Positions 3,903 through 43,109 of a stretch of 64,000 nucleotides of DNA are shown one piece after another. This DNA is from an uncultured delta proteobacterium (lineage in GTDB: Bacteria; Desulfobacterota; Binatia; UBA9968). The first letter of the stretch is position 1. Each line of letters starts with the position of its first letter. Under the pieces are notes generated by a model. That model ran no database searches. It was not told the origin of the DNA and saw nothing but the letters and a program-made list of their open reading frames with translations. The stretch covers positions 1 through 64,000 of the forward strand of contig CAVTUQ010000012.1 in assembly GCA_963737905.1 (NCBI GenBank). The letters are read 5' to 3'. Made by a program: the position numbers and the translations under genes.

Positions 3903-4027
3903 GCGATTCATCGCTAGCGTAGGTATGTAGTTATAACGCGGCTTGCTTGACTGATCCTTGGTCCCTCCCTTCGATGAAGTCAGGAAAGCGTGTCGGGAGA
4001 TCACCAGAAAAGCCACTGGAGGTGCTT

Positions 4028-11486: not shown

Positions 11487-12305
11487 TCAGTCTTTGACCG
11501 TCCGGCGGTAAACGAAATAATAAACCAGCGCCACCATAACGCTGCCTCCCACAATGTTACCTAAGGTCACGGGCACGAGATTGGACCAGAGTCCGACCCA
11601 GGAAAGATTTTCGGCGCCGCTCACGAGTACCCGATCTTTTAGCAATATCCCCAAGGGGATGAAGTACATGTTGGCCACGCTGTGCTCGAAGCCGGCGGCG
11701 ACAAACGCCGATATGGGAAAAATGACGGCGAAGATCTTGTCGGTTACACTTCGCCCGGCGAGAGCGAGCCACACGGCCAAACAGACTAAAATGTTGCAAA
11801 TAATACCTTTGAAGAAGGCCTCCCAGAAAGGAAGCGCCGCCTTAGCAACGGCGATCTTCACGGCGTTTATTCCCACCGCATCGCTATTCATCTGCCAGTG
11901 ATGCGATAGCACGACCAGAAAAACCAGGCCAAGCGCGCCCGCCAGATTTGCCAGGTAAACGATGGTCCAATTTGCCATCAGCTCTTTCGTCGTAATCCGG
12001 CGGCTTGCCCACGCCATGACCAACAGGTTGTTGCCAGTGAAGAGCTCGGCGCCGGCGACAACCACGAGAATCAACCCCAGCGAAAAAGTCAGGCCGCCGA
12101 GCAAGCGGCTAACAGCAAAACTAAGGCTTGAGTCGCTGGTGACGAGGGTGAAATAGAGCGCCCCCAGGCCGATGAAGCCGCCCGCCAGGACGCCGAGCGT
12201 TGCCACCGTCAATAGCGGCAGGCGGGCTTTAGTAACGCCGATATTTTCGACGCGCTCGGCAATTTCCTTGGGTGAGTAAGCATCGAAGCCGAAAAGTTCT
12301 GCCAT
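11487..12305 (-). CDS. Formate/nitrite transporter (FNT; FocA/FdhC-like)
   Basis: GAELFTGN, FEHSVANM, VTLGNIVGG; directly downstream of FDH. Confidence 0.95.
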   Translation of the reverse strand: MAELFGFDAYSPKEIAERVENIGVTKARLPLLTVATLGVLAGGFIGLGALYFTLVTSDSSLSFAVSRLLGGLTFSLGLILVVVAGAELFTGNNLLVMAWASRRITTKELMANWTIVYLANLAGALGLVFLVVLSHHWQMNSDAVGINAVKIAVAKAALPFWEAFFKGIICNILVCLAVWLALAGRSVTDKIFAVIFPISAFVAAGFEHSVANMYFIPLGILLKDRVLVSGAENLSWVGLWSNLVPVTLGNIVGGSVMVALVYYFVYRRTVKD

Positions 12306-12310
12306 TGGAT

Positions 12311-14980
12311 CTATGGGATTTTATCGATTCGGACTGCCGTCACTTTATATTCTGGTGCCAGCACATAGCGATCGCGGTACGGGCTAGTGACGTTGTTCAA
12401 AAAGACCTCTGCGGTATGAAATGTCGCGAAGAGTTCGCCTTTTTTCACGGCACTATTAATGCGTACCGACAGGTTGGCATTGCCATAGCGGCTGCGTAAT
12501 CGGATTTTTTCTCCATCGTGCAGCTCCAGACGTTCTGCATCCTCTGGTGCCATGTCCAGGAAGTCCGCCGGGTATAGTTCTTTGTTGTAAGTGCGCAGGG
12601 TCATGGTGCCCGCGTTGAACTGATACAATGTTCGTCCAGTGGTGAGGAGAAAGGGAAACTCTTCAGTCGCGACCTCTGAAGTTGCCTGGTAGGGAATCCG
12701 TCGCAATGCAGCTTTCTTGCCGATGGGAAAGCTCTCGCCGTGCAGGATTTGTGTTCCGGGGTGGTCATCCGAAGGACAGGGCCACTGGATTCCAGCTTGA
12801 TCGATCCGGTCATAGCTGATGCCGCTCCCCGCTTTCCAAACCCGGCGCACTTCGTTCCAAATGCCCTCGGCAGACTCGTAGTTGAACAGATCGGCTTTCC
12901 CCAGTGCGCCCGCCATGGCGCCGATGATTTCCCAGTCCGATTTGGCGCTCCCGGGGGGCGTAATGACTTTGCGCACGCGCTGGATGCGGCGCTCGCCATT
13001 CATGAACGTACCGTCCTTTTCGAAAGCGGAAGCCGCCGGCAAAAAGACCGTGGCATAGTCGCGCGCCGTTTCGTTTAGAAACATGTCTTGGACGATCACG
13101 AGCTCCATTTTGCTGAGTGCCCGTCGGGTGCTGGCGGTGTTGGCATTGGTGAGCAGAACATCGTAGCCGATCGCCCAGAGGGCCTTGAACCGGCCTCGGG
13201 CCGCGGCGTCCATCATCTGCATCAAGTTCAAACCTTTTTCTGTGGGCACCGTGGCTTGCCATACGCTCTCGAATAACGCCTTGTTTTCAGGGAGCGGGAC
13301 GTATCCCGTCAGATTGTCTGGCTCGCAGCCCATGTGAGCGGAACCCTGGACATTGTTCTGACCGCGCAGCGGGTTGATTCCACTGCCAGGCTTGCCAAGA
13401 TTCTCGGTGAGCAGAGCGAGATTTACCAAAGTCATGACCGCGTCGGTTCCCTGCGTGTGTTCGGTAACGCCCAGACCGTGGAAGCACATGGACGGTTTTG
13501 CGCCCGCGTAAAGGCGCGCAGCAGTACGGATCAGAGCGGGTTCGACGCCACAAATCGCTGCCGCCCTTTGCGGCGGCCATGCGGCGATGAACTGACGAAA
13601 TTCGTCGAACTCCGCCACCCGCTCCTGGACGAAGCGCTGATCGCAGAGTTGTTCTGCGATGATGACGTGAGCCAGCGCGTTCAAGAGCGCGATGTTGGTT
13701 CCCGGACGCAGCGCGAGGTGCACTTGAGCGTAACGGCACAATTCTATACGCCTGGGATCGATCACGACCAGATTGGCACCGCGCAACACCTGCTCTTTGA
13801 TTCTGGCGCCGACAATGGGATGGTTCTCGGTGGTGTTGGTGCCGCATAGGAGGATGGTTCGCGCGCGTTCGATATCGTCGAGGGAGTTGGTCGCGGCGCC
13901 GGTGCCGAGCACCATCTTCATGGCGGCGGCCGTGGGCGCATGGCAAACCCGTGCGCAACAGTCAATGTTGTTGGTCGCTAGAACAGCGCGGGCAAATTTC
14001 TGGGCTAAATAGTTTTCCTCGTTCGTGGCTCGGGCGGAGCCCAGAACACCGACGCTCTGCGGCCCATATTGGCTGAGGATTCGCTTTAGCTCAGCGGCGC
14101 TGAAATCGATCGCTTCTTGCCACGAAGCTTGGGTCCAGCTCCCTTTCTCTCGGATCAGCGGCTCCGTGATCCGGTCGGTTGCAGATATATAATTGTAGGC
14201 ATAGCGTCCCTTGACGCAAAGATGACCCTTGCTGACCGGAGCCTCCAGAGCCGGGCGGATCGAGACGATGGTGCCATCGCGTGTGCCGACGTTCATCTCG
14301 CAGCCGGTGCCGCAGTAGGCGCAAGTTGTCTTGGTCCAAGCGGTGGGTGTGCCGAGTGAGAGAATGGTTTTGTCTTCCAGGGCGCCCGTGGGACAGGTAT
14401 CGACGCAGGCGCCGCAACTGACACAGGAGCTTTCACGCAAATTGGTCCCGGAGTCTGGAACAATACGAGTCTCGGCGCCGCGATTCCAAACCTGCCAGAC
14501 AAACTGTCCCTGCAGCTCTTCGCAGATGCGCACGCAGCGGTAGCAGTAGATGCAGCGGTTCATGTCGACGTGAATGTAAGGGTGGGAATCGTCTATCAGT
14601 CTCGAATCCGTAGGCCCCGACACTTCGTCTAATAAGCCATAAAGATTTAGATAGCCGTGAAACGTTTTGTTGGGTGCTTGTTGGAGAGCTTCCCTGGGAT
14701 AACGGTGAGCGAGCAGGGACAAAACCCCTTTGCGCTCTGCGCGTAATGCGTCTGTCTCGGTTCGAATGACCATGCCGTCGGTGAGCGGCGTGTGGCAGGA
14801 AATCGCCGGGTGGGACCATCCTTCGACTTCAACCACGCACAGCCGGCAAGCGCCGGCGGGCTTCAGGCGTTCATCATGACAAATCGTCGGCACTTCGATG
14901 CCAAGTGAACGCGTGGCTTCTAGGATCGAGACGGTTTCTCTAAATTCGTAACTCTTGCCGTTGATGGTTGCATGAAGCAT
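12311..14980 (-). CDS. fdhF: Mo/W formate dehydrogenase alpha subunit (FdhF/FdsA-type) with N-terminal Fe-S domains
   Basis: GACRLC, CIYCYRCVRIC, CVSCGACVDTCP, CAYCGTGC, catalytic CARVCH (Cys), LRGQNNVQG. Confidence 0.92.
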   Translation of the reverse strand: MLHATINGKSYEFRETVSILEATRSLGIEVPTICHDERLKPAGACRLCVVEVEGWSHPAISCHTPLTDGMVIRTETDALRAERKGVLSLLAHRYPREALQQAPNKTFHGYLNLYGLLDEVSGPTDSRLIDDSHPYIHVDMNRCIYCYRCVRICEELQGQFVWQVWNRGAETRIVPDSGTNLRESSCVSCGACVDTCPTGALEDKTILSLGTPTAWTKTTCAYCGTGCEMNVGTRDGTIVSIRPALEAPVSKGHLCVKGRYAYNYISATDRITEPLIREKGSWTQASWQEAIDFSAAELKRILSQYGPQSVGVLGSARATNEENYLAQKFARAVLATNNIDCCARVCHAPTAAAMKMVLGTGAATNSLDDIERARTILLCGTNTTENHPIVGARIKEQVLRGANLVVIDPRRIELCRYAQVHLALRPGTNIALLNALAHVIIAEQLCDQRFVQERVAEFDEFRQFIAAWPPQRAAAICGVEPALIRTAARLYAGAKPSMCFHGLGVTEHTQGTDAVMTLVNLALLTENLGKPGSGINPLRGQNNVQGSAHMGCEPDNLTGYVPLPENKALFESVWQATVPTEKGLNLMQMMDAAARGRFKALWAIGYDVLLTNANTASTRRALSKMELVIVQDMFLNETARDYATVFLPAASAFEKDGTFMNGERRIQRVRKVITPPGSAKSDWEIIGAMAGALGKADLFNYESAEGIWNEVRRVWKAGSGISYDRIDQAGIQWPCPSDDHPGTQILHGESFPIGKKAALRRIPYQATSEVATEEFPFLLTTGRTLYQFNAGTMTLRTYNKELYPADFLDMAPEDAERLELHDGEKIRLRSRYGNANLSVRINSAVKKGELFATFHTAEVFLNNVTSPYRDRYVLAPEYKVTAVRIDKIP

Positions 14981-16645: not shown

Positions 16646-17797
16646 TCACCGGTTAGCCTTCCTATAGCCCAAGGCGTCTTGCGCGATGATGAGCTTTTGA
16701 ATGTTCACCGATCCTTCCACGATCTGATAGGACTTGGCATCGCGAAAATAGCGCTCCACGGGAAACTCAGTTGAATAACCGTAAGCGCCGAGGATTTTGA
16801 GCGCGGCGTCGGAACTAAAGGCCGCAGCCTCGGCGGCGGCGTATTTAGCGATGGAGACCTCAAGATTGTAGGGTCGTCCGCGATCGGCAAGGCACGCGGC
16901 GCGATAGACCAGAAGGCGCGCGGCCTCTTCCTGCACCACCATCTGCGCGATCAGGTCTTGATTCATTTGGAATTGGCCGATCTTTTGCCCGAACTGTTCG
17001 CGCTGATTGGCGTAGCTCACCGCGGCCTCGCGGGCCGCCTTGGCGAGTCCAACGGCTCCGGCGGCGCAGCCAAGGCGCGTGTGGTTTAAGTGGCGCATAC
17101 AGATCTTGAAGCCTTCGCCTTCTTGGCCGATGAGGTTTTCCTGCGGAATCTCAAAATTCTCGAAGGTGAGCTCACCGGTAGGCGAGGCATGCGCGCCCAT
17201 CTTGTCGAGATCGCGCCGGCTGACGCCCGGCTGTTTCAAATCGACATAAAACGCCGACATGCCGCGGTGTTTCTGCGAACGGTCGGTATAAGTAAAGATG
17301 ACTCCCGCGTCTGCCACTGTGGCGTTGGTAATCCAGATCTTCGTCCCATTGAGCAGGTAACCCTTGCCGTCGCGCTTCGCGGTGGTTTTTATTGCCGCCA
17401 CGTCCGAGCCGGCATCGGGCTCGGTGATGGCAAACAAACCTACGGATTCGCCGCTCAAGAGACCGGGGATGTATTTTTTCTTTTGCTCCTCGTCGCCAAA
17501 CTCAAAGAGCGTTACGGCCGGACCCGCCTGCATATTGAGATAAACCCTGATGGCGCTGTGAATCCGGGCGATCTCCTCCGAGATCAGCGCGTGCGCTAGA
17601 AATCCAAGACCGTTCCCGCCGTATTCCTCGGGGATAAGGCAGCCAAAGAATCCCAGCGACCCCATTTTTGCCACCAGGTCCCTGCGAAAAGTATGTTCCT
17701 TGTCGTCCTTTGCCGCGCTAGGGGCGATTTCCTTCTCGGAGAAATCGCGCGCGAGCTTTTGGACCTCGGCTAACTCTTCGGGCAATTCAAAGTCCAT
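16646..17797 (-). CDS. Acyl-CoA dehydrogenase, non-decarboxylating glutaryl-CoA dehydrogenase type
   Basis: RVYLNM, HASPTGEL, LNHTRL, FQMNQD, LGAYGYSTE, VEGS and C-terminal RKANR resemble the Desulfococcus-type GDH as I recall it. Confidence 0.8.
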   Translation of the reverse strand: MDFELPEELAEVQKLARDFSEKEIAPSAAKDDKEHTFRRDLVAKMGSLGFFGCLIPEEYGGNGLGFLAHALISEEIARIHSAIRVYLNMQAGPAVTLFEFGDEEQKKKYIPGLLSGESVGLFAITEPDAGSDVAAIKTTAKRDGKGYLLNGTKIWITNATVADAGVIFTYTDRSQKHRGMSAFYVDLKQPGVSRRDLDKMGAHASPTGELTFENFEIPQENLIGQEGEGFKICMRHLNHTRLGCAAGAVGLAKAAREAAVSYANQREQFGQKIGQFQMNQDLIAQMVVQEEAARLLVYRAACLADRGRPYNLEVSIAKYAAAEAAAFSSDAALKILGAYGYSTEFPVERYFRDAKSYQIVEGSVNIQKLIIAQDALGYRKANR

Positions 17798-18947
17798 CAC
17801 GCTGCTCCTGCTTCAAAAGATGCTTGGTGATAATGAGCCGTTGGATTTCGGATGTCCCTTCATAGATTCTAAGCGCCCGCACATCACGGTAAAGACGCTC
17901 CAGAATATTCCCAGCGACGACACCGTTGGCACCGTGAATTTGTAACGACTGGTCGATGATCCGCTGCGCTGCTTCCGTGGCAAAGAGCTTGGCGATCGAT
18001 GATTTCAGCGGAACTTCTTGATGATTCTCGTCTTTCATCGAGGCAGCTTGGTAGACTAACAGACGCGCAGCCTCAAGTTCCGTTGCCATATCGGCGAGCG
18101 CAAACTGTATCCCTTGGAACTCCGCAAGCGCATGTCCGAACTGGCGCCGATTTCGGCTATAGCCGACTGCTTCGTCCAAGGCTCTCTGCGCGAACCCGAC
18201 GGCAGCGGCGCCCACCGTGCAGCGTAGCGTGTCGAGCGTGCGTAGGGCGATTTTCAATCCCTCGCCCTCACCCCCGAGCAGCTGCTGTTGCGGGACAAAG
18301 CAATCCTCAAAGGCCACGACCCCAATGGGGTGAGGCGAGAGCAACGGAGTTTTTTCTTTGACGGTGAACCCGGCAGAGTTTGATTCTACGATGAAGGCGC
18401 TGAGACCCTTTGCCTTAGCCTCGGGTTGCGTCGATGCGAAGACCACATAGGTATGCGCAATCCCTGCGTTGGAAATGAAATGTTTAACGCCGTTAAGCCG
18501 ATAACCGTTGCTCTCTCTTTCGGCCTGTGTGCTGATGGCTGAAACGTCTGACCCTGCGTTAGGTTCGGTCAGTGCGAAAGCAGCGATCCTTTCTCCCTTT
18601 GCCAGCGGCGGTAAGTAACGCCGTTGTTGCTCTTCGCTTCCGGCCAGCGCAATCGGATAACTTCCCAATGCTTGAACGCCGAACATCACGTCCGCTAGAG
18701 CCGAACCCCACGCCAACTCTTCGCGGATGAGGCACAGGTCACGGGCCTGGACCGTCTCTCGGACGCCGCCGAATCGACTCGGAACCGAGTACGCCATGAA
18801 TCCGTCTTGGCCGAGTTGGTTCGCCAGCCGACAGGCGTTAATCTCTAAGTTCCCTTGCCCATAGTCACCGGGGCCGAGATTGTTCTTTACCCAAGCGCGG
18901 ATTTGCCGGCGCAGGTTTCGATGTTCATTGTCAAACCAACAGTCCAT
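17787..18947 (-). CDS. Acyl-CoA dehydrogenase (AbmD-like)
   Basis: FALTEPNAGSD, SPHPIG, RALRIYEGTSEIQ. Confidence 0.88.
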   Translation of the reverse strand: MDCWFDNEHRNLRRQIRAWVKNNLGPGDYGQGNLEINACRLANQLGQDGFMAYSVPSRFGGVRETVQARDLCLIREELAWGSALADVMFGVQALGSYPIALAGSEEQQRRYLPPLAKGERIAAFALTEPNAGSDVSAISTQAERESNGYRLNGVKHFISNAGIAHTYVVFASTQPEAKAKGLSAFIVESNSAGFTVKEKTPLLSPHPIGVVAFEDCFVPQQQLLGGEGEGLKIALRTLDTLRCTVGAAAVGFAQRALDEAVGYSRNRRQFGHALAEFQGIQFALADMATELEAARLLVYQAASMKDENHQEVPLKSSIAKLFATEAAQRIIDQSLQIHGANGVVAGNILERLYRDVRALRIYEGTSEIQRLIITKHLLKQEQRDGL

Positions 18948-18965: not shown

Positions 18966-19415
18966 TCATCCCGCTAGTTCCTTTTGATAGTGGAGCATTT
19001 TTCCATGGTCAAAACCGAGCCGGCTGAAAAAGTGTTGCATCTCGGTCTGGTTGCTATTGATCAATGTGAAGATGGTCTTGATTCCATGATCTTCAGCGGA
19101 CTCGGCGAATTGTTGGACGAGTTCCTGAGCAATTCCGCGGCGGCGATAGGCCGGGTCAACACCAATGATTTCAATCCATGCCACGGTACCAGGTAAACCA
19201 AATTCAAATTCACCGGCGCGGCCCAATACGAAACCAACGACGCGATTGTCTAGCTCGGCAACCAAAGAGGCCCAGTGCGGCCGTATGGCCTCGGAGATTT
19301 CGATTCTCTTCTCCCAGTAATCGGGTCGCGCCACCCCCGTTTGGCGCTCTTCCATGCTGACGATCGCCGCCAGATCCCGTTTCTCTAAATTTCTAACGTA
19401 AATTTCTTTTTTCAT
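18966..19415 (-). CDS. GNAT acetyltransferase (possible BadL analogue)
   Basis: IGVDPAYRRRGIA acetyl-CoA motif; lies inside BCR operon. Confidence 0.85.
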   Translation of the reverse strand: MKKEIYVRNLEKRDLAAIVSMEERQTGVARPDYWEKRIEISEAIRPHWASLVAELDNRVVGFVLGRAGEFEFGLPGTVAWIEIIGVDPAYRRRGIAQELVQQFAESAEDHGIKTIFTLINSNQTEMQHFFSRLGFDHGKMLHYQKELAG

Positions 19416-19513
19416 TTGTTTCTCCAGTACCTCTGTAGTTGAAAGCTTTCCCAGCTCGCGCAAAATTTCTGACCGTTATTCGTCATGAATGCAGCACCTG
19501 ACGAAAGCCATTC

Positions 19514-19600
19514 TCACCACGAAGATCGCGAAGGCCACGAAGGGTTTGGACATTTTTGATTATAAACTTCGTGCTCTTCGTGTCCTCGGTGGTCAAATCC
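19514..19600. repeat. Intergenic inverted repeat (CACCACGAAG...CTTCGTG...GGTGG family)
   Basis: CACGAAG/CTTCGTG repeated arms; related to 100-342. Confidence 0.6.
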
Positions 19601-19647
19601 GCTTTTCTCGTCTAGCTCTTTTTTTGATTGCGGTTTGCCGCACTGGG

Positions 19648-20442
19648 TCAGCCGCGATTGAAGCGTAGCGGTCGCTTCTCGATGAACGCATTGTAACCTT
19701 CCACAAAATCCGGTGTCTCCATGCAGCGCGCTTGAGCCATCGCTTCCATTTCCAAAGCGGCTTCCAAATCGACGTTGCCTTCGTATTCGATCAGCTCTTT
19801 GGTTACCCCCAGGGCGTATAACGGGCCGTCCTTCAGGCGGGTGGCCCACTTGTACGCTTCGTCCATGAGCGTTTCGCCGGGTACGACGCGATTGGCTAGC
19901 CCGATCCGATAAGCCTCTTGGGCGTCGATGGTATCGCCGAAGTAGACCAGTTCTGTGGCTTTGCCTAGGCCGACGATGCGCGGTAGCAAATAAAGAGCGC
20001 CCATATCCGCGCCGGATAGACCGACTTTTACGAAGAGAAAAGCCGCTCGAGCTTTGTCCGAGAATATGCGGAGATCAGAGGCCAACATCAGCATCGCACC
20101 GGCTCCTGCAGCGATACCATTGACGGCGGCGATAATCGGCTTCTTTAGGTTGCGCATGTTCTTCACCACGTTGCAGGTCATGCGCGTGAAGTTGTAAAGC
20201 TCGTCGCCTTTCATTTTGAGCAGCGGGCCGATGATGTCGTTGACGCTGCCGCCGGAACAAAAGCCTTTTCCGGTTCCGGTCAACACGACGACTTTGACGC
20301 TTGTGTCATCCGCTAGCTCCGCCATGATCTTTTCCAGATCGCCGTAGGTTTGGAAGGTTAGCGCGTTGAGTTTTTCGGGATCGTTTAACCGGACAGTAGC
20401 GATACCATCGTTGTTTTCGAACACAAAACTCGAATAGTTCAT
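19648..20442 (-). CDS. Enoyl-CoA hydratase/isomerase family (AbmC-like subgroup)
   Basis: FCSGG, AAGAG, FLFVKVGLSGADMGA. Confidence 0.88.
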   Translation of the reverse strand: MNYSSFVFENNDGIATVRLNDPEKLNALTFQTYGDLEKIMAELADDTSVKVVVLTGTGKGFCSGGSVNDIIGPLLKMKGDELYNFTRMTCNVVKNMRNLKKPIIAAVNGIAAGAGAMLMLASDLRIFSDKARAAFLFVKVGLSGADMGALYLLPRIVGLGKATELVYFGDTIDAQEAYRIGLANRVVPGETLMDEAYKWATRLKDGPLYALGVTKELIEYEGNVDLEAALEMEAMAQARCMETPDFVEGYNAFIEKRPLRFNRG

Positions 20443-20477
20443 CTTTATCGTCTCTTTCCTTGAAATTAATCTGTCGT

Positions 20478-21257
20478 CTAAACCATGACCGCGCCGCCGT
20501 CAACGTTGATGGCTTGTCCGGTAATGCCTTTGGCCGATTCGGCCGCAAGCATAAGAACCAGATGAGCCACCTCCTCAGGTTCGATCAACCGTTTTTGTGG
20601 TGATGTGCTCCGAAGAATTTCCAAACTGTCATCCGGCGGCTTGCCTCTTTTCTGCGCCATCAGCCGCGCATTTCGTCGCGTAAGATCGGTGTCGACGTAC
20701 CCCGGACATACAGCGTTCACTGTCACGCCAAATTTAGCGGTCTCCACGGCTAGAGCGCGGGTGAGGCCGAGTATCGCGTGTTTGGATGTGACATAGGCGG
20801 AGATATGCGAATAGGCAACCTTAGCGACGGTAGAAGCGATGTTGATGATCCGGCCCCAGTTCGACGCCAGCATCTCGGCGAGAAAGACCTTGCAACAATT
20901 GTAAGTGCCGGTCAGATTGACGCGCATCACCTCTTCCCAGAGACCATCTTGCATTTCCAGGAAGCCGGCGGCCGGAGCGATGCCGGCGTTATTGACCAGG
21001 ACTTGCACGGGCCCAAAGCGACTTGAGATCTCCTGTTTTAACGTTTCCACTTGTGTTTTTTGAGTAACGTCGCAAATTCGGGGAAACGCTTCGGCTCCTG
21101 CGTGGCGGATCTCTTCGGCGACAGCGTCAAGTGTCGCTTGGGTTCTGCCAGTGATGCACACACAGCTTCCTTGTGTTGCGAATGCCAAGGCTATGGCGCG
21201 GCCGATACCACTGCCGCCTCCCGTGACCAAAACGACTTTGCCCTCAAGATCCTGCAT
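20478..21257 (-). CDS. SDR 3-hydroxyacyl-CoA/3-hydroxybutyrate dehydrogenase-like (AbmB-like)
   Basis: TGGGSGIG, NNAG, YVTSK, CPGYVDT. Confidence 0.88.
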   Translation of the reverse strand: MQDLEGKVVLVTGGGSGIGRAIALAFATQGSCVCITGRTQATLDAVAEEIRHAGAEAFPRICDVTQKTQVETLKQEISSRFGPVQVLVNNAGIAPAAGFLEMQDGLWEEVMRVNLTGTYNCCKVFLAEMLASNWGRIINIASTVAKVAYSHISAYVTSKHAILGLTRALAVETAKFGVTVNAVCPGYVDTDLTRRNARLMAQKRGKPPDDSLEILRSTSPQKRLIEPEEVAHLVLMLAAESAKGITGQAINVDGGAVMV

Positions 21258-21260
21258 CTC

Positions 21261-22040
21261 TCAATTTCCGGTGAAGTTTGGTTTTCGTTTTTCCAGAAAG
21301 GCTTTGGTTCCCTCGGCCAAATCGTGAGTGTGCGCGATCCCACCGAAGGTCCGAGCTTCGAATTCAAGCCCGGTCGCCAAGTCTACTTCCTGGCTCCGGT
21401 TGATCAGCATCTTCGACGCCTGCAACGCGAGCCGGGGCAAGGCCGCAAGCTTCTCCGCAAGTTGCCGTGCTGACTCCATCAATTTCCCTTTCTCTACTAC
21501 CATCATGACCAAGCCGGATGCGAGGGCTTGCTGCGCTGTAATTGGATCACCGGTGAGAATCATTTCTTTTGCTTTGGCGACGCCGATCAAACGCGACAGT
21601 CTTTGCGTGCCGCCGCCGCCGGGAAAGGCGCCGATCTTGATTTCCGGTAGACCAAAGCGGGCGGTTTCGGAAGCGATGCGAAAATCGCATGCCAGCGCAA
21701 GTTCGCAGCCCCCACCTAACGCGTACCCTGAAACCGCAGCGATCACGGGCTGAGGTAACGCTTCCACTTGGTCGAAGAGAATCTGAAACTCGCGAGCATG
21801 TTTGTACGCGGCTTCCGCGCTAGTCGTGCCCTCTATCTCGCCGATATCAGCCCCAGCGCAAAAAATCTCGTTTCCACCGGTGATGAGGACGGCTCGGACG
21901 GCGGTTTTCCGTGCGAGATCATGGAGCACCGTCGCCATCTCCGTCCGCATCTCCGCATTGAATGAATTCTTCTTTTGCGGCCGGTTCAATTGAATCGTGG
22001 CGACCGCGCCGTCCTCTCGATACTGCAGGGTTTGATACAT
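21261..22040 (-). CDS. Enoyl-CoA hydratase (crotonase; BadK candidate)
   Basis: FCAGAD, GGGCE, PEIKIG both catalytic Glu present. Confidence 0.9.
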   Translation of the reverse strand: MYQTLQYREDGAVATIQLNRPQKKNSFNAEMRTEMATVLHDLARKTAVRAVLITGGNEIFCAGADIGEIEGTTSAEAAYKHAREFQILFDQVEALPQPVIAAVSGYALGGGCELALACDFRIASETARFGLPEIKIGAFPGGGGTQRLSRLIGVAKAKEMILTGDPITAQQALASGLVMMVVEKGKLMESARQLAEKLAALPRLALQASKMLINRSQEVDLATGLEFEARTFGGIAHTHDLAEGTKAFLEKRKPNFTGN

Positions 22041-22133
22041 CGTTTTGTCGCTCCTATTGCCGTGGCGTTCAAACTAAGTTGGTTAAATTCCCCGCAGCAG
22101 CTTACTGCGTCAAATTTCCGCCTTCTCGAATTC

Positions 22134-22267
22134 CGTCATTCCCGCATGCTCCTAGCGGGAATCCAGGGATGTTCGGACTGGACCCCCGATAAAAACGTTC
22201 GGGGGTGACGACCTTGGGATAAATTCAATTTTTTGATACCCCGCAGCTTGCTGCGGAGTAGTTCATT
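22134..22267. repeat. REP-like palindromes plus TACCCCGCAGCTTGCTGCGG hairpin
   Basis: CGTCATTCCCGC...GCGGGAAT; CCCCCGA...TCGGGGGTGACG; CCGCAGCTTGCTGCGG. Confidence 0.6.
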
Positions 22268-22289
22268 ACGGTCGTTCACTGCGACCCTT

Positions 22290-22535
22290 TCATTGGCTGT
22301 GGGCATAAGTCGCTGACTCCGGATAGATGGTTTGCCAATACTCGCCGGACTCAAGCAGTCCACGACAAACCTTACCGCAGGTGAGCTGGTCGACGTGAGG
22401 CTTCGCGTCACACTCGACCACATCCAACGTCTGTCCGCGCAGCTGCGGAAAGGCCTGAAGTCTGACGGTGTGGGTTTGCTTGTCGACCGGACATTTCAAA
22501 GAGTATTTGAAATCGAGGGATAAAAAGCGGCACAT
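22290..22535 (-). CDS. Small Cys-rich hypothetical protein (CP...C...CxxxC)
   Basis: AAAGGAG RBS; 5 Cys; inside BCR operon. Confidence 0.75.
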   Translation of the reverse strand: MCRFLSLDFKYSLKCPVDKQTHTVRLQAFPQLRGQTLDVVECDAKPHVDQLTCGKVCRGLLESGEYWQTIYPESATYAHSQ

Positions 22536-22556
22536 GGTGTTTCTCCTTTCACTGGG

Positions 22557-23411
22557 TTAACTCAGTCCGAATAGCGCCACGGCGTTATCGCGCAAAAGTT
22601 TTTTCTTTGTCTCTTCTCTGAGTTTCATCTCTTCCCACTGATCCAGACTTTCTTTCCACGGCAGGCCGTTGGTTCCCCACAGGCAACGGTCCTGACCCAT
22701 CCGGCTATTAATGTAATGGATGATCTCGGGCTTCATGTATTTGGGCATCCAGGCGTCGACGCCGAAGTAAACATTATCCCACTTGTAGCAAACCGAAATC
22801 AGCTCCTCGACCCAAGGCCACCCGGTGTGGGCGCCGATGATTTTGAGATCGGGGAAGTCGCTCGCGATGCGGTCGAGATAAATCGGCCGCGCATGCTCGC
22901 TCGGCATCGCTTCCAATACGTGACCGACTTGCAGCGAAACGGGGATCTGAAGCTCGTCGCACTTGGCATAGAGCGGATACATTTTCGAGTCGTGCAGCGG
23001 AATATCGAAGCCATAGATGTGGATGTAGACACCTTTGAAGCCATAGTCTTTGACCGCGCGGTCGATTTCCTGCAGCGACTCCTTGATGCGAAATGGGTTG
23101 TAACCGGCGAGGCCGACAAATCGGTCGGGGTAACGTTTTGTGTATTGCGCCACCTCTTCGAGCTTCGTGTCCATGTACATCCATTTATTGCGATACGACC
23201 ACATCTTGCACTGCGTGATGAAAACTTTTTCCACGCCGGCCTCGTCCATCTTCGCGAGCATCGTCTCGATGCTGTCGTATTGCGGCAGGCCGCCGATAGC
23301 TTTTTCCATGCGGCAAATGAGCTCACCTTTTTTCGCCTCGTTCCAGCGGTTGATAAACTCCGGCGTGGCGACGTAGTACATGAAGTCGATTGCTTTAATT
23401 TCGTGTCCCAT
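22557..23411 (-). CDS. Amidohydrolase-superfamily (Amidohydro_2-like) protein
   Basis: YPDRFVGLAGYNP, MYPLYAKC, GAHTGWPW, WGTNG; lacks canonical N-terminal HxH. Confidence 0.85.
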   Translation of the reverse strand: MGHEIKAIDFMYYVATPEFINRWNEAKKGELICRMEKAIGGLPQYDSIETMLAKMDEAGVEKVFITQCKMWSYRNKWMYMDTKLEEVAQYTKRYPDRFVGLAGYNPFRIKESLQEIDRAVKDYGFKGVYIHIYGFDIPLHDSKMYPLYAKCDELQIPVSLQVGHVLEAMPSEHARPIYLDRIASDFPDLKIIGAHTGWPWVEELISVCYKWDNVYFGVDAWMPKYMKPEIIHYINSRMGQDRCLWGTNGLPWKESLDQWEEMKLREETKKKLLRDNAVALFGLS

Positions 23412-23492
23412 CTCGTCCCTCCGACCCGCGCGTGCTCGTGGCTCGTGCTCTCACACGACACGAATCACGAGCACGAACACGGCCTTTTGTTT

Positions 23493-24257
23493 CTAAACCA
23501 TTGTTAACCCGCCGCTGACGCTTAGCGTCTGTCCGGTAATAAATTCCGCCGCCGGCGATGCCAAGAAAAGCACCGCCGCGGCAATCTCCTCGGGCTCGGC
23601 CGGGCGCCTGAACGGCGTGGCCTTGGTCACCGCATCTATGATTCTCGCCGTCTGCTCGGATTGACCTCGGACAGCCTGCAACAAGGGCGTTTCCGTCAGG
23701 CCGGGGCAGACCACGTTGACGTTGATCTTATAGCGCGCCACTTCGCGCGCGATGGTCTTTGAAAACGCGATCACCGCCCCTTTGGCGCCGGCGTAGACCG
23801 CTTCCCAGCTTGAGCCGACACGTCCCGCATCGGAGCTGATGTTGACGATCTTACCGCCACCATGGGAGATCATCTGGGGCAAAACGGCTTTGGCCGTGTA
23901 AAGCACGGACTTGAAATTAATCGCCAAAAGTTTTTCCCAGGTCTCTTCGTTGCTTTCGACGAAGGGCTCCAACCGGTCCCAGCCCTGGCAGTTCACCAAA
24001 ATGTCGATCTGACCGAAGCGAGCGAGAACTTCGCTTACTATGCGGTCGACCTCAGCCTTCTTGGTCAAATCCACTGGATACGCCACGGCCTCGACGCCGA
24101 GAGCTTGAACTTCATCTCTCACTTTCTCGGCGTTCGTCTTTGCGATATCAGCTACGGCCGTTTTTGCCCCGGCGCGACCCATTGCCAATGCGACTGCGCG
24201 CCCGATGCCGCCGCCACCCCCCGAAATCAGCGCTGTTTTTCCTTGGAGTTCCATCAC
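23493..24257 (-). CDS. badH: 2-hydroxycyclohexanecarboxyl-CoA dehydrogenase-like SDR
   Basis: GGGGGIG, GWD, SDAGRVGSS.EAVY, C-terminal GQTLSVSGGLTM typical of BadH; BCR context. Confidence 0.8.
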   Translation of the reverse strand: MMELQGKTALISGGGGGIGRAVALAMGRAGAKTAVADIAKTNAEKVRDEVQALGVEAVAYPVDLTKKAEVDRIVSEVLARFGQIDILVNCQGWDRLEPFVESNEETWEKLLAINFKSVLYTAKAVLPQMISHGGGKIVNISSDAGRVGSSWEAVYAGAKGAVIAFSKTIAREVARYKINVNVVCPGLTETPLLQAVRGQSEQTARIIDAVTKATPFRRPAEPEEIAAAVLFLASPAAEFITGQTLSVSGGLTMV

Positions 24258-25087
24258 GCTACTCTTGCCTCCTCTCCAATGATTGGCTTCTGTCGATCGT
24301 CGCGAATTTTTTCCAAGCGCCGGAGCGCCAAAAGTGCCGCCCCTAAAACACCGACCAATTCCGGCTCTTCGCTGACGTTGACCTTCCTTTTGAGTGTCTC
24401 CTCGAGCGCCTTCACCATCCCTTTTTGCCGCGCCACACCGCCCACGAAGGTGACCTCGTCTTCCATACCGGAGCGCTTGAGCAACGCTAAAGCTCGGGAA
24501 GCAAGTGAGTTGTGAACGCCGCGCAGAATGTTTTCGATAGTCTCGCCGTTTGAGACGTGATTGATAATCTCTGATTCGGCCAAGACCGCGCAGACGCTGC
24601 TGATGGTTTGCGGCTTATTAGCTTGAATGGAGAGATCGCCTACCTGATCGATATTGACCTCCAGATATTTGCAGGCTCGTTCGATGAAGCCACCGGCGCC
24701 AGCGGCGCACTTATCGTTGGTGCGGAATTCGCGCACCTTGCCGGTGTCGCTGACCCGCAGCGCTCGCGTGCTTTGCGCGCCGATGTCGAGCACGCAGCGG
24801 GTTTTGGGGAAGAGAAATACAGCGGCGCGCCCCACGCAGGTGATGTCGGTGATCTGAACGTCACGGAAAGGAACGTTGTAACGGCCAAAGCCGGTGGTGG
24901 CGATGTAGTTCAGGTCAGTCTCTTTGAGCCCCGCCCGCTGAAGGGCTAAGTCGAGCACCTCTTTGGCAACCGCATGGAAATCCGGACGGGTTTTCACGAT
25001 TCCCTTGCCACAAACGCGTTTTTCTCCGTCTAGGATCAGCGCTTTGGTCGATTTAGCGCCCATATCGATGCCAGCGACAAAATCCAT
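24254..25087 (-). CDS. bcrD: Benzoyl-CoA reductase ATPase (activase) subunit, BcrD/BzdP-Q type
   Basis: [33 protein letters not shown]. Confidence 0.8.
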
Positions 25088-25952
25088 GATGCCTCCCTAA
25101 TTCGAGCTTTCGGGCTTCGGGTTTCGGGTTTCGAGTTTGACCCGAAACTCGAGATTCGAGACTCGAAACTGCTTTGATTGCGCGTTCTACGGCGAAGATG
25201 CTGGCTCCTAGCGCGCCGACGAAATGAGAATCTGGACTGACATTGAGCTTCATGTTGAGTTTTTCTTCCAACGCGCGCATCATGCCGATGTTGAGTGAAA
25301 CCCCGCCCGTGAAGGTCACTTCCGGCTCGATGCCGACGCGCCGCACCAGTGAAATGGTTCGTGCGGCGATGGCGCTGTGCACGCCGCCGAGGATATCCTC
25401 GGTCTTTTTGCCTTGGGCGAGGTAAGACATGATGTCAGATTCGACGAATACCGTGCAGACGGTGGTGAGGCGCACTGGATTTCGCGCCTTGAGCGAAATG
25501 TCGCCGATATCGCCGAGGCCCATCCCAAGAGCCTCAGCGGCGCTGGCGAGGAATCTTCCTGTGCCGGCTGCGCACTTGTCGTTCATGACGAAGTCCTTGA
25601 CGTCGCCGTCTGCACCGATTTTAATGCCCTTGGCATCCTGGCCGCCCATGTCGATGACGGTGCGGGTGTTGGGAAAAAGGTAGCTCGCGCCGCGCGCATG
25701 GCAACTGATCTCGGTGATCTGGGCGTCGCCAAAGGTCACTTTGTATCTGCCGTAACCGGTGCCCACTACATAGGCGACATTTTCTCGCTTGAGCCCAGAT
25801 TTTTGCAGGGCCTCGACGAAGCACCTTTCCGCAGCCCGGGTGACGTAAGCGCCGGTATCGGTCAAGGCTCTGGCAATAATCTCAAACTTGTCGTTAAGGA
25901 TAATCCCTTTAGTCTGCGTGGAGCCGACATCTATGCCTGCGGCGTAAATCAT
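25053..25952 (-). CDS. bcrA: Benzoyl-CoA reductase ATPase (activase) subunit, short BcrA/BzdQ type; C-terminus extended by heptamer repeats
   Basis: [44 protein letters not shown]. Confidence 0.8.
25100..25170. repeat. Inverted heptamer tandem repeat (TTCGGGT)n/(CTCGAGA)n
   Basis: TTCGGGC TTCGGGT TTCGGGT TTCGAGT ... CTCGAGA TTCGAGA CTCGAAA. Confidence 0.65.
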
Positions 25953-27250
25953 GCTGAGCCTCCCGCGTTCGCTCTGGCATGAACAATCTTTTTGTGTTCC
26001 AACGATTCGAAAAATGCGTCGATGCGGTTTCTGAGCTGCGCTTCGGAAAAATATCTCGGATCTTCGATATCCGATTCGATCAACAGAGTGGGAACGTTCA
26101 GCTCTTTGGTGAAATATTCGCGCATGTCACCCTGTCCCGCAGAGAACAGTCGACAACTCTTAACGGAATGAATCACCAGAGCGTCGGCATGCCACTCTTC
26201 GACATAGCGGCGGATCTGCTGGTAGCGCTGCAGGAAGTTGCGGTTGGTGACGTTCCATTGGAGCATATGCTGGGCGATCGATTCCAACGGGTGATTGGGA
26301 TCATGCCTGAAGCCGAATTCCCACAAACCGCCGACCGTGGAATAAGTCGAGGCCACCGCCACCGCGCCCCATTTGGAGAAAAGATCTCTAAACGTGCGCA
26401 GGTAGGGCCAGGGCGGTGGTCCTTCGATAACGAAGCGGAAGCGCTCCTCAGGTAACGGCCCCGTTCCCATCCGCACTTTTTCTTCCATCTCTTTAAGGGC
26501 GGTTTCGAAGAATCTCACTCCATCTTCCGTGCCCCTGAGACAGTAGAGTGGCGCCATCATGGTCACCGAGTCGAAGTAGGCGTCAAAGGGAGAAGGAATA
26601 TTCTTGGTCAGCCCTTTGATGCGCGACCACATTTCGCCGGTTTCACTCGAGCGGCTGACGATTTCTTTCAGCCGAGCGTAGTCGAGTTTCTTTCCCGTGA
26701 GCTTTTCGCAGATCTCGATCACCTCTTCGAGCTGGCGCACGACGTAAGTAATGTCCTCCGGGCTCGGCTGTCCGGAAGGGTCGCGCAAGAAAGGGATGTC
26801 GAGGTTGTAGAGTTGCCCATCGCAGTACTCGGCCAAGTGCTCGAACCACTGGAGGTAGACGTTGCAGCCGACGTAGTTACAGAGAATCAGCGACGGCAGT
26901 GGGATGGTCGCGAAAGGAGTTTTGCGGTCGCCGAGAAAGAGGCCGACATCGGCCTTCACATAGGCGCAGTTGTCCATTGAGTAGCCCAACTCCTCGGCCT
27001 TTAGGATAAAGGGCAGGGCGCTCTTCTTAACCGCCAGTTGCAGGGCATCGATCTCCGGATAAACCGGGATCAGATCGAAAGCCTGAATCAGCTCCACCGG
27101 ATTGCCGCTGATCAGCATGTAGACGGCTTTGCCCTCGCCCTTTTCCGCGGCCCGGGTAACCCGCTCGAAGTAGCGCCCCATCATCTCTTTTTGCAGGAGA
27201 TGCATCTGACCCTGGTAGCTTGTCTTCACGGTTTCAGTTGCCTGTGCCAT
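25949..27250 (-). CDS. bcrB: Benzoyl-CoA reductase subunit B (BcrB/BadE, 2-hydroxyacyl-CoA dehydratase family)
   Basis: [44 protein letters not shown]. Confidence 0.85.
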
Positions 27251-27261
27251 CTTTACTCCTT

Positions 27262-27330
27262 GGTCTCTTCGAGTCTCGGGTTTCGATTTGAACACGGGAC
27301 CCGGGACACCAGACACGAGACTCTGGATTC
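27262..27330. repeat. Heptamer-like inverted repeat between bcrC and bcrB
   Basis: TCGAGTC TCGGGTT TCGATTT ... CACGGGA CCCGGGA CACCAGA CACGAGA. Confidence 0.55.
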
Positions 27331-27336
27331 ACGTGT

Positions 27337-28494
27337 TTAGTCAAACAGCATTGACTCCACGAAGGTCTCGACCTCAGTGCGCGCCTTGTCGAAGATCCAC
27401 ATCTTTTCCTCAAATTCGAGGCAGAGGTGAGGAATACCCTCTTTCTCCAACGCCCGTTTATAGAGCGCGTAGTCGAACAGCGCGGGCTCGCAGAATTTCG
27501 CTGCCAGGATCAATACCGCGTCGGCGCCGTTGTCCCTGAATTTGTCAATCAGATGTTTGGATTTAGGCTCGCGCGTGTCGTGTTTCACTCCAGAATAAAC
27601 GCTATGATTGAGGTAAGCGTTGGCGAGGTTACGCATAGGATCGCCTTCAGTCGAAATATCTTCAGAAAACCAGCGCCAACCGATAAGAAAATCGTCATCT
27701 AGAATATAGCAGCCGGCGGATTCGAGTCCGTCGAGCAATTCGATGGGTGGCTGTTCACAGAAAGAGCCTTCTAGAACGACTCTAATTCGGTCCTTGGGCT
27801 TTTCGTTGCGCTGACGCACAGCAGGGATAGCTTCTTCAAGGATGGCGATGTGCTCCTCCGGAGGTAGTAACGTGCCGATGCGCGTCATGACGTAACACTC
27901 GACGGTCGAAAAATTCTGCGGTGTCTCTCTACGGATGGAGTAAAGTTCCCGGAGCAACCGCCGCTGGGTATTGTAAAGCGCTATACTTTGTCTCAGCGCC
28001 TCGTCGGTGATTTTCTTTCCGGACAGTTGCTCATAGCTGGCGTTAAGTCTTTTGTACTCGGAGACCAGGTAATCGATGGTATGGGGTGAAGTCATGTTCT
28101 GCGGAAAGTGAATGTACTCCACCATAAGATCGGGAAAATTCCGCGTGAAGACGCTGGCGAGATTGCGGGCCGGATCACAGATCGAGTGGAAGACGATACC
28201 GTCGAGAAACTTAAGTCTGTCGGTCAGACCCAACTCCAGTGTGCTTTTGACGATAGAACAGACAAAAGATTGAAACCGCGAGTCAGCATGAGCGATCTCC
28301 AGGCGGTTACCGGCGCCAATGACGCCGACGGGCAGCATTCCGGCGGCGTGGATGAGTTCAAACGGAGTATAGACCGGATAGCAACCGACAATCTTGGATT
28401 TTGGATGGTTCTCCTTCCACTCCTTGACTAGATCGAGGGGAGAGTTTTCTAGCGTCTCACGATAACGGGAAATAAGATTTTCGATTGTCGTCAT
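27337..28494 (-). CDS. bcrC: Benzoyl-CoA reductase subunit C (BcrC/BadD)
   Basis: PVYTPFELIHAAGMLP, FQSFVCSI, ICDPARNL, GSFCEQPP, FCEPAL. Confidence 0.85.
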   Translation of the reverse strand: MTTIENLISRYRETLENSPLDLVKEWKENHPKSKIVGCYPVYTPFELIHAAGMLPVGVIGAGNRLEIAHADSRFQSFVCSIVKSTLELGLTDRLKFLDGIVFHSICDPARNLASVFTRNFPDLMVEYIHFPQNMTSPHTIDYLVSEYKRLNASYEQLSGKKITDEALRQSIALYNTQRRLLRELYSIRRETPQNFSTVECYVMTRIGTLLPPEEHIAILEEAIPAVRQRNEKPKDRIRVVLEGSFCEQPPIELLDGLESAGCYILDDDFLIGWRWFSEDISTEGDPMRNLANAYLNHSVYSGVKHDTREPKSKHLIDKFRDNGADAVLILAAKFCEPALFDYALYKRALEKEGIPHLCLEFEEKMWIFDKARTEVETFVESMLFD

Positions 28495-28523
28495 TGACCA
28501 CCGTGATTTCGATTCAGGATTGC

Positions 28524-28538
28524 GCAATATAAGTGCCA
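28524..28538 (-). promoter_or_regulatory. sigma54 promoter for BCR operon
   Basis: TGGCACTTATATTGC (full consensus) 30 bp before ATG 28494. Confidence 0.8.
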
Positions 28539-28721
28539 GTGTTTTCTCGGTTGTTTATTGACACTCACATTGGAATCTTCTCAACTCTCGGAAAAGTACG
28601 CCAAAGGAATTCCCAACTATGAGAAGTTATTTAGCAAGTTGCCCTCGATTGCGGAGAGTAGCGCCTGCCTTGCTCATTAAAATGGTCAGTCGCTTCTTCA
28701 AAGGCGGAGCAACCTGCTACC

Positions 28722-28807: not shown

Positions 28808-29436
28808 ATGGAAAACATAATAGACACAAATACGTCAGGATGCGCTCATGCTGCGCATGGAACGCAGCCTACGGGTTGCGCACATCAGCCACTTCGAGAA
28901 AGCGACGGAGATGCTCAGCGATGAACACAGAGTTATCGAGCGTGTGCTCGCCGTATTAGAGAACCTCACGACAAACCCGTGGAGAACGCGATAGAATGTG
29001 GAGAAAGGCGCTCGATTTCTTTAGTCAGTTTGCGGACCAGTGCCACCATTTTAAGGAAGAGCAGGTCCTATTTCCTTCGATGGAGGAGCACGGAATACCG
29101 AGAGAAGGAGGGCCCATCGGCATGATGTTGATGGAGCACGAGGAGGGAAGAACTTACGTGAGGGCGATGCTTTCAGCGATCCCCCTCGTAGAGGCGAAAA
29201 ATGAAGTTGCAAAGGAAATCCTTATAGATAAGGCGAAGGCATACCTCCGACTGCTGGAGGAGCATATCCAGAAAGAGGATGAGGTCCTCTTTAGAATCGC
29301 CGATGACATCATTTCTCTCGACGAGCAAAAACAGCTGTTGCGATCATTCGAAGAGCATGAGGCCAAGGAGATAGGAGAAGGAGTTCACGAGAAGTACCTC
29401 AAGATCGCGGAGGAGCTGGAAGCAAAAATGGGATAG
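28808..29436 (+). CDS. Hemerythrin (HHE) domain protein, frameshifted in this sequence
   Basis: AGGAG RBS; ATEMLSDEHRVIERVL in one frame, HHFKEEQVLFP, EHEEGR, HIQKEDEVLF in another; His/Cys-rich N-terminus. Confidence 0.8.
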
Positions 29437-38760: not shown

Positions 38761-38771
38761 GGAGGCCGGAC

Positions 38772-41075: not shown

Positions 41076-41237
41076 GAACCTTCCAGCAGTAAAAATGGTT
41101 CAGGACAATCGATGCGGGCAGTTTCTTAGCTTGGCCCTTGGTCGAAACCGCGGAGCGAGGCTTTCTTGGCCACAATTGAAATCTGACGAAGTAGCTCTTC
41201 TCATGGCTTTTTTTGAGCGATCAACGCGGAGCGAACG

Positions 41238-42494: not shown

Positions 42495-42534
42495 TAGGAG
42501 AATGAAACAAAACGTAGGCGGCATCCCGAGTGTT

Positions 42535-42590
42535 GTCATTTCGACCGAAGGGAGAAATCTAGATCCCTCACATCCGTTCGGGATGACACC
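42535..42590. repeat. REP-like element
   Basis: TGTCATTTCGACCGAAGGGAGAAATC...CGTTCGGGATGACA. Confidence 0.55.
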
Positions 42591-42644
42591 GAATGTGAGG
42601 AAAACAGCGGTTCTCACCTACGGTAGACGCGAACCAAAATAATT

Positions 42645-43107: not shown

Positions 43108-43109
43108 GC

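Follow-up and report, generated by a model that had tools for sequence, protein, structure and literature searches.

Two crotonase-fold hydrolases, Oah/BamA (6-oxocyclohex-1-ene-1-carbonyl-CoA hydrolase, TIGR03200) and BadI (2-ketocyclohexanecarboxyl-CoA hydrolase, TIGR03210), open the ring in benzoyl-CoA-type pathways, and Oah carries out a hydration as well as the cleavage. Once the ring has been dearomatised, its opening is the committed step, and bamA, a gene for a hydrolase of this crotonase fold, serves as a marker gene for anaerobic aromatic degraders. For anaerobic naphthalene degradation, a 2025 review considers ThnN (N47_E41360 / NPH_5899, ‘metallo-dependent hydrolase’), encoded in the thn operon, the most promising candidate for the enzyme that opens the first ring (PMC12016498). 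Here we analysed a 64,000-nt stretch of contig CAVTUQ010000012.1 from an uncultured delta proteobacterium of the Binatia (termed the window; all window coordinates count from its position 1). Next to class-I benzoyl-CoA-reductase-like genes, the window encodes a protein of the Amidohydro_2 family, termed AH, which belongs to the same Pfam family as ThnN. AH is a TIM-barrel protein without sequence relationship to the crotonase-fold hydrolases Oah and BadI, and it is proposed to take the place of either in the pathway. Judged from its sequence and gene context, AH fairly probably acts as a ring-opening C–C hydrolase in a benzoyl-CoA-type pathway, as a functional analogue of Oah and BadI.

The AH gene is part of an operon in which 13 genes run in the same direction and either overlap or are closely spaced, in the order BcrC-, BcrB-, BcrA- and BcrD-like subunits, short-chain dehydrogenase SDR1, AH, s82, ECH1, SDR2, ECH2, GNAT, ACAD1 and ACAD2 (Table 1). 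The first-pass annotation had placed an amidohydrolase gene directly behind badH. This is borne out, as SDR1 and AH are consecutive minus-strand open reading frames separated by 81 bp. The range given there for the amidohydrolase, 22557-24257, is right in extent but spans SDR1 and AH, not AH alone. For all four reductase-like subunits, class-I benzoyl-CoA reductase models were the top match, in each case below the equivalog cut-off, and the enzyme is reductase-like by sequence and is not assigned as a class-I benzoyl-CoA reductase proper. SDR1 presumably converts the ring hydroxyacyl-CoA into the β-oxoacyl-CoA by oxidation. At the other end of the operon, ACAD2 passes the cut-off for Acd-type glutaryl-CoA dehydrogenases and, by this match, represents the lower part of a benzoyl-CoA-type pathway, so that the operon would run from dearomatisation to the C5 stage. 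Between the reductase-like genes and the glutaryl-CoA dehydrogenase gene, NCBIfam and Pfam scans found neither Oah nor BadI among the 13 operon genes. In metatranscriptome data, contigs of the RNA libraries X5, X16 and X17 cover 29-30 of 30 bins of window positions 19600-28600 at ≥90% likeness, and some X5 pieces differ from the window by only 1-4 letters. As such libraries may contain DNA and contigs are not transcripts, this is a hint of operon expression.

The absence of a known ring hydrolase extends to the genome from which the window derives (87.5% complete, 6.7% contamination). In profile searches of this genome, the best score for Oah was 80.7 bits (cut-off 464) and the best score for BadI was 137 bits (cut-off 467.6), so neither was found. 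The same genome holds a match to the benzoate-CoA-ligase family over the cut-off, and the BcrC-like gene of the operon is the sole one found in it. Among 46 AH-bearing genomes, for which no completeness figures are at hand, Oah scored over the cut-off in two and BadI in none. For comparison, Oah was over the cut-off in 105 of 401 sampled genomes of the window's own phylum; 27 of these 401, the window's genome included, carry an AH relative at E ≤1e-45, and the close AH family occurs only in the window's genome. The preceding steps were searched as well. Canonical Dch was over the cut-off in none of 47 genomes with AH loci, and a Dch-like crotonase (140-188 bits) was present in 32 of the 47 and in none of 14 control genomes at the same threshold. 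Of ten Dch-like loci that were fetched, six adjoin AH. With a Dch-like crotonase and a dehydrogenase present and Oah and BadI not found, the hydratase and dehydrogenase steps thus have candidates, and the ring-opening step has none. The first-pass annotation had suggested a check for anti-correlation with badI and oah across such gene clusters; the distribution seen here is complementary, apart from the two genomes G008 and G042, which carry both AH and Oah.

To see with which genes AH travels, we used species-representative genomes, in which 310 stretches encode an AH relative. The best 80 of these, with AH at 73-92% identity to that of the window, are referred to as the 80 loci, and the 40 of them with 6 kb or more of sequence to either side are called well flanked. 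Linkage was counted by tblastn with the operon proteins of the window; for the clustering of locus genes, open reading frames were chosen by GC content at third codon positions, which recovered AH in 78 of the 80 loci. The loci carry about ten phylum labels, including Syntrophobacter/Deltaproteobacteria, Binatia, several classes of Acidobacteriota, Rokubacteria/Methylomirabilota and Verrucomicrobiia, and further Fraserbacteria, Acetothermia, TA06, Chloroflexota, Clostridia and others. Reductase-like genes lie within 8 kb of AH in 37 of the 40 well-flanked loci, and about 9-10 kb away in the remaining three (L061, L064, L068). No more than 1.5 kb separates AH from an SDR gene in 61 of all 80 loci (34 of the 40 well-flanked ones). 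Of the 40, 28 have a crotonase gene and 12 an acyl-CoA dehydrogenase gene at a distance of up to 10 kb, and a GNAT gene was found within 6 kb in 28 of the 80 (18 of the 40). The gene order varies: close relatives have reductase-SDR-AH, and many Acidobacteria have GNAT-AH-SDR-reductase. Of all genes of the module, AH evolves most slowly, and it is the best conserved one in 20 of 24 distant loci. Where AH is 72-85% identical (59 loci), its median identity was 77%, compared with 53-66% in the reductase subunits and 58% in the SDR. More distant relatives keep similar company: all four plasmid-borne ones inspected (36-40% identity) adjoin genes for CoA ligases, acyl-CoA dehydrogenases, thiolase or crotonase.

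The genus g44 provides a case in which AH stands in the chromosomal slot of Oah. Five genomes of this genus carry Oah and five carry an AH of 49-51% identity to that of the window, with zero overlap. In the five AH-type genomes Oah was not found (best 120 bits), and in the five Oah-type genomes no close AH was found (best relative 36% identical). Such exclusivity within a genus is weak by itself because related genomes are non-independent, and we therefore compared the loci themselves. Had was over its cut-off (338.65) in nine of the ten genomes. It directly adjoins Oah in all five Oah-type genomes, and in the AH-type genomes G332 and G430 a Had gene (469-474 bits) directly adjoins the 51%-identical AH, which thus holds the slot of Oah behind Had. 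The loci are collinear by tblastx, with mutL, truA, rpsI, rplM, rnc, era, AH or Oah, Had, a DPBB/SPOR gene and mnmG. The same Dch-like crotonase occurs in both types of genome, and an SDR gene stands beside Had and Oah in G184, G245 and G275. The g44 AH forms one clade with the window AH (support 100/98) and keeps H131, H164, H195 and N248 as well as the motifs GVYIHIYG-DIPL and GHVLEAMPSEH.

AH matches Pfam Amidohydro_2 (PF04909) with 125.9 bits (gathering threshold 26.4) over profile positions 68-289 of 289, which leaves the N-terminal HxH part of the profile uncovered. No NCBIfam model was matched, including TIGR03200 (Oah) and TIGR03210 (BadI). The first-pass annotation had noticed that HxH and the terminal Asp are lacking and that GTNG stands in place of the latter; alignments and a count over the family agree with this. 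Strand 1 reads AIDFMYY, with D9 followed by M11 and Y13 at what we take to be the positions of the HxH pair, the register being set by the ID-x-H-x-H motif. Strand 8 reads G246-T247-N248-G249, where more distant relatives read G-T/S-D. In 118 close homologues, M11, Y13, H195 and N248 are each present in all 118, and H131 and H164 in 116 each. M11, Y13 and N248 are thus traits of the family and not sequence errors. A second clade of 71 proteins (ThnN/P0128; 37-49% identical) keeps H131 in 71, H164 in 69, H195 in 71 and N248 in 66. Of 98 representatives that are less closely related, 42 have Asp and 29 have Asn at position 248, and only 26 retain H131; in the alignment, HxH is missing across the whole wider subfamily.

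The full signature of AH comprises D9, M11/Y13, Y104-N105, H131, H164, H195 and N248. In ACMSD-type enzymes, the canonical single-metal site of Amidohydro_2 consists of HxH on strand 1, a His on strand 5 and an Asp on strand 8. This set is incomplete in AH, which retains H164 (strand 5) and H195 (strand 6). To judge from its sequence, AH works without the metal site that is usual for Amidohydro_2. In the AlphaFold model (pLDDT 91.2), H131, H164 and H195 follow directly after strands 4, 5 and 6 in the DSSP string. The ends of strands 4-6 form the second-metal site in other enzymes of the amidohydrolase superfamily. The three histidines together with N248 and D9 are therefore likely to form the catalytic centre, their closeness being predicted from the positions of the strand ends in the model.

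ThnN is among the closest systems described. Its orthologues were identified in two metagenome loci, L137 and L202, via synteny with the thn operon and not via a named sequence. Both loci come from a metagenome scan that included more distant relatives, and their gene order matches the thn operon table in PMC12016498: reductase-like genes, a large oxidoreductase, two MaoC, a thiolase, 3HCDH, two crotonases, AH, an acyl-CoA dehydrogenase, and later a CoA-transferase and AtuA. In the tree, the window clade (100/98) and the ThnN-like clade (98/94) are sisters joined at 99/96. Both types of protein share the motifs D-x-M-x-Y, G-H at strand 5, H-T-G-x-P-W and G-T-N-G, and both operons combine a class-I reductase-like enzyme with crotonases and acyl-CoA dehydrogenases. 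However, the AH of L137 and L202 and that of the window are no more than 41-42% identical, and ThnN-type proteins, unlike the window protein, have about 25 residues inserted behind strand 1. The window operon lacks the MaoC pair, the thiolase, the 3HCDH-type dehydrogenase, the CoA-transferase and AtuA, all of which are present in L137, and instead holds a BadH-like SDR, a GNAT and a glutaryl-CoA dehydrogenase, unlike the thn operon. As these thn-type genes are missing from its operon, AH is a relative of ThnN and not a ThnN orthologue proper. The first-pass annotation had spoken of a ‘new’ ring-cleaving hydrolase, which goes too far, since the same role is already in print for ThnN of the sister clade, which shares the motif (PMC12016498). 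In the limited literature collection that we searched, supplements excluded, the ThnN proposal was the only hit both for an assayed amidohydrolase in a benzoyl-CoA pathway and for such a reductase-like module in Binatota, Rokubacteria or Acidobacteriota.

Other members of the superfamily were compared with AH. CouO of Rhodococcus jostii RHA1, likened to AH by description only, is an amidohydrolase-superfamily enzyme that ends a β-oxidative deacetylation and acts on an intermediate of the β-oxoacyl-CoA type, according to PMC4737184. CouO and LigY of Sphingobium SYK-6 are precedents in the superfamily for the hydrolysis of C–C bonds next to a carbonyl. LigY, which is Zn-dependent, matches AH in fold (5vn5, 6e6i), but its sequence match is weak (E 0.027), and unlike C–C hydrolases of the CouO/LigY type AH has no HxH/Asp site. 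The fold matches of AH among solved structures are led by 3irs, followed by LigW-type decarboxylases (LigW2), the LigJ hydratase, ACMSD and the C–C hydrolase LigY. The best of these, BB4693 of Bordetella bronchiseptica (3irs, 3k4w), is an uncharacterised protein that matches AH with a sequence E of 6.2e-26, a fold E of 3.4e-16 and a TM score of 0.76, at 25% identity over the columns aligned by Foldseek; like AH it lacks the strand-8 Asp, reading G-T-A there. A name search for 3irs and BB4693 in the same literature collection returned no relevant paper. The protein search with AH gave 1828 of 2275 candidates at E ≤0.001, and the best 120 are 78-96% identical. In Geobacter metallireducens, BamU (Gmet_2147) is annotated as an amidohydrolase, is 10.4-fold induced on benzoate and is encoded near bamR (Dch) and bamQ (Had), as described in PMC1924859. 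The review gives 43% similarity between BamU and ThnN (PMC12016498).

Taken together as a pathway, the operon would act as follows. The ATP-dependent reductase-like enzyme would reduce an aryl-CoA, and a crotonase would add water, ECH1 in the window and the Dch-like one in other phyla. The BadH-like SDR would turn the resulting alcohol into a ketone, and AH would cleave the C–C bond of the cyclic β-oxoacyl-CoA, by itself or once ECH2 has carried out a second hydration. The C7 dicarboxyl-CoA so formed would be shortened to glutaryl-CoA and then oxidised by the Acd-type dehydrogenase. Both the substrate and the chemistry of AH are what we infer from its neighbours and residues. A broader proposal is that the clade constitutes a new type of ring-opening hydrolase, in which the metal site has been swapped for a three-His centre at strands 4-6 and which replaces BamA/Oah in the reductase-like modules of metagenome-assembled genomes that carry about ten phylum labels (including Acidobacteriota, Methylomirabilota, Binatia and Desulfobacterota) and, as ThnN, in the naphthalene pathway. 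We put this forward tentatively and give it slightly less than even chances.

It might be that AH is a hydratase only, resembling LigJ and acting on a dienoyl-CoA or 6-oxo-enoyl-CoA, and that a crotonase-fold protein (ECH2 here, others elsewhere) opens the ring. LigJ matches AH structurally and belongs to the same Pfam family, ECH2 is devoid of the hydratase glutamates, and the adjacency of AH and SDR fits a hydratase that feeds a dehydrogenase equally well. In addition, the review reports as unpublished that of six thn hydratases none acted on hexahydro-2-naphthoyl-CoA, so that ThnN is still a candidate for this hydration too (PMC12016498). On the other hand, the first hydration already has a candidate in the Dch-like crotonase of 32 of the 47 genomes, often beside AH, and genes of the ECH2 type are confined to close relatives. 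Moreover, the g44 AH replaces Oah, an enzyme of both hydration and cleavage, and no Oah-like crotonase remains in those genomes. We therefore regard a role restricted to hydration as unlikely. About as unlikely, in our judgement, is that AH has lost its catalytic function, performs another CoA-ester chemistry (as decarboxylase, isomerase or thioesterase) or is a structural partner of the dehydrogenase or reductase. This would agree with the missing HxH pair and strand-8 Asp, with the slow evolution of AH, the most conserved gene in 20 of the 24 distant loci, and with the uncharacterised state of its nearest solved structure, 3irs. However, the three His, N248, D9 and Y104-N105 are near-invariant across two clades of 37-51% identity, and such conservation at strand ends in divergent clades argues for a working active site. 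A co-evolving subunit does not fit either, since AH stays 73-80% identical while the reductase subunits fall to 24-60%, and AH is also found with an MDR-type Had where no class-I reductase-like gene is nearby. Decarboxylation, the commonest function in Amidohydro_2, was set aside because AH lacks the metal ligands and is linked to reductase and SDR genes and not to a route for carboxylated aromatics.

A further explanation starts from the acetyltransferase gene: AH could be a small-molecule amidase paired with GNAT, for example deacetylating an acetamido-aromatic signal or intermediate. A GNAT gene is found within 6 kb of AH in 28 of the 80 loci, in those labelled Acidobacteria, Fraserbacteria and Acetothermia often directly upstream of it, and G. 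metallireducens induces both an N-acetyltransferase, BamK, and the amidohydrolase BamU on benzoate (PMC1924859). Yet the characterised Amidohydro_2 matches of AH are decarboxylases, a hydratase and a C–C hydrolase, with zero amidases among them, the canonical metal ligands are missing, the linkage to SDR (61 of 80) and reductase genes is far stronger than that to GNAT (28 of 80), and the g44 and thn-type loci hold AH without GNAT. An amidase function is thus very improbable. Of the deaminase or deacetylase that the first-pass annotation had offered as its alternative, little is left beyond this proximity of GNAT.

Ring opening by AH, proposed in the first-pass annotation as a non-orthologous replacement of the known ring hydrolase, is well backed by genome comparison in three independent ways, the phyletic pattern, the operon logic and the swap in g44. 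Several observations weigh against it. The nearest comparator of ECH2 is a ThnL-like protein (34.8% identity), and the ThnL results given in PMC13689101 include in vitro cleavage of 2-oxocyclohexane-1-carbonyl-CoA. ECH2, which lacks both crotonase glutamates, could itself be a C–C hydrolase, or the second hydratase. G008 and G042 hold both AH and Oah over the cut-off, and more distant AH relatives occur together with Oah in three of 26 genomes of the phylum (G072, G180, G241). In G042, labelled Desulfotomaculum, the 75%-identical AH gene (positions 3422-4294 of locus L072) lies between dapB/dpaA and lgt, with no pathway partner nearby and only housekeeping genes (dapB, dpaA, lgt, pnp), and Oah is encoded elsewhere, adjoining a Dch-like gene. 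BamU, compared by description only, co-occurs with Oah in G. metallireducens (PMC1924859). In g44, just two of the five AH-type genomes have the Had-AH pair, the AH of G151, G077 and G116 being located elsewhere, and the SDR that accompanies Oah is not present in the AH-type loci, so that the swap drops the SDR along with Oah (L244-L246 compared with L238-L239). With the SDR lost in this way, the AH product may enter β-oxidation otherwise than as 3-hydroxypimelyl-CoA. Furthermore, the genomes compared are metagenome-assembled or representative genomes, and kin genomes are not independent observations. On the experimental side, ThnN was insoluble in Escherichia coli in the work described in a 2026 paper (PMC13689101).

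If AH indeed opens the ring, surveys that use bamA as marker would miss a large group of degraders in soil and groundwater, and metagenome screening for anaerobic aromatic degradation would change. The amidohydrolase superfamily would then contribute a second, unrelated fold for ring opening, with an unusual active-site layout. The window family is a close and extremely conserved relative of ThnN in simpler operons, and g44 offers a natural replacement of Oah by AH; through these two, the question of how the first ring of naphthalene is opened becomes directly testable.

Table 1. Operon genes and the divergent neighbouring gene, in window coordinates
Feature	Position	Strand	Basis
BcrC/BadD-like subunit, class-I benzoyl-CoA-reductase-like	27337..28527	-	Pfam HGD-D; TIGR02263 357.6 bits, below cut-off 421.15
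BcrB/BadE-like subunit	25949..27316	-	Pfam HGD-D; TIGR02260 310.7 bits, below 486.55
BcrA/BadF-like ATPase subunit	25053..25952	-	Pfam BcrAD_BadFG; TIGR00241 276.9 bits; TIGR02259 205.5, below 578
BcrD/BadG-like ATPase subunit	24254..25087	-	Pfam BcrAD_BadFG; TIGR02261 182.1 bits, below 312.85
SDR1, BadH-like short-chain dehydrogenase, 254 aa	23493..24257	-	Top NCBIfam match BadH TIGR03206, 287.9 bits, below 431.2
AH, Amidohydro_2 protein of ThnN-related clade, 284 aa	22557..23411	-	Pfam PF04909, motifs, tree
s82, 81-aa four-Cys protein	22290..22535	-	Conserved open reading frame; begins 21 bp past AH stop
ECH1, crotonase, presumed hydratase	21261..22040	-	Both catalytic Glu present (GGGCE, LPE)
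SDR2, 3-hydroxybutyrate-dehydrogenase-like SDR	20478..21257	-	Putative 3-hydroxyacyl-CoA dehydrogenase of the opened chain
ECH2, crotonase-fold protein	19648..20442	-	NF006107/PRK08258 353.2 bits, above cut-off 330; both catalytic Glu lacking
GNAT acetyltransferase	18966..19463	-	Domain match
ACAD1, acyl-CoA dehydrogenase	17787..18947	-	Reaches no NCBIfam equivalog
ACAD2, Acd-type glutaryl-CoA dehydrogenase	16646..17800	-	NF045552 496 bits, above cut-off 470
Hemerythrin-domain protein, divergent from operon	28996..29436	+	Pfam PF01814

Several neighbours of AH deserve a short description. ECH2 reads GAGAM and FLFVK at the positions of the catalytic glutamates; homologues at 83-91% identity occur only in close relatives, and others at 46-50% in L040, L066, L069 and L071. 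The s82 protein has four invariant cysteines (C15, C42, C53 and C57) and occurs in 13 of the 80 loci, all from close relatives. It gave no Pfam match and belongs to no known family, and as a small protein that may bind metal it could assist AH or the pathway. For the operon GNAT, a counterpart in Rhodopseudomonas palustris is BadL, which reportedly acetylates aminobenzoates. BamK of G. metallireducens is likewise described as an N-acetyltransferase (PMC1924859). A cluster of hemerythrin proteins turned up in 13 of the 80 loci, and the one encoded next to the operon could serve oxygen sensing or the repair of iron centres for an oxygen-sensitive reductase.

Other sets of redox genes accompany the module outside the window. 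Genes resembling type-II DMSO reductase or ethylbenzene dehydrogenase stand beside it in L001, L009-L011, L014, L022, L045, L048, L054, L056 and L067. These sets comprise a Fer4_11 β subunit, a NarJ-type chaperone, EB_dh with cytochrome c, and FmdE-MobB, and the window is without them. In L015, L017, L023, L034, L038 and L044, genes resembling pyruvate/2-oxoacid:ferredoxin oxidoreductases adjoin the module, an arrangement in keeping with their providing the reductase with reduced ferredoxin.

The remaining genes of the window, among them those for a P-type ATPase, a formate-dehydrogenase-like enzyme, citrate synthase and multihaem cytochromes, are functionally unrelated to the operon. Just downstream of it, at 11487-14980 on the minus strand, lie genes for a formate/nitrite transporter and for a molybdopterin enzyme of 889 aa that resembles formate dehydrogenase and contains 2Fe-2S and 4Fe-4S domains. 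At 38757-44282 on the plus strand, a fragment of an MtrB/PioB-like outer-membrane porin, a multihaem cytochrome c and a cytochrome b gene were found, which suggests extracellular or respiratory electron transfer. Finally, an 847-aa protein encoded at 52092-54635 on the minus strand joins GNAT, CoA-binding, Succ_CoA_lig and ATP-grasp domains, an architecture that resembles that of Pat-type protein acetyltransferases.

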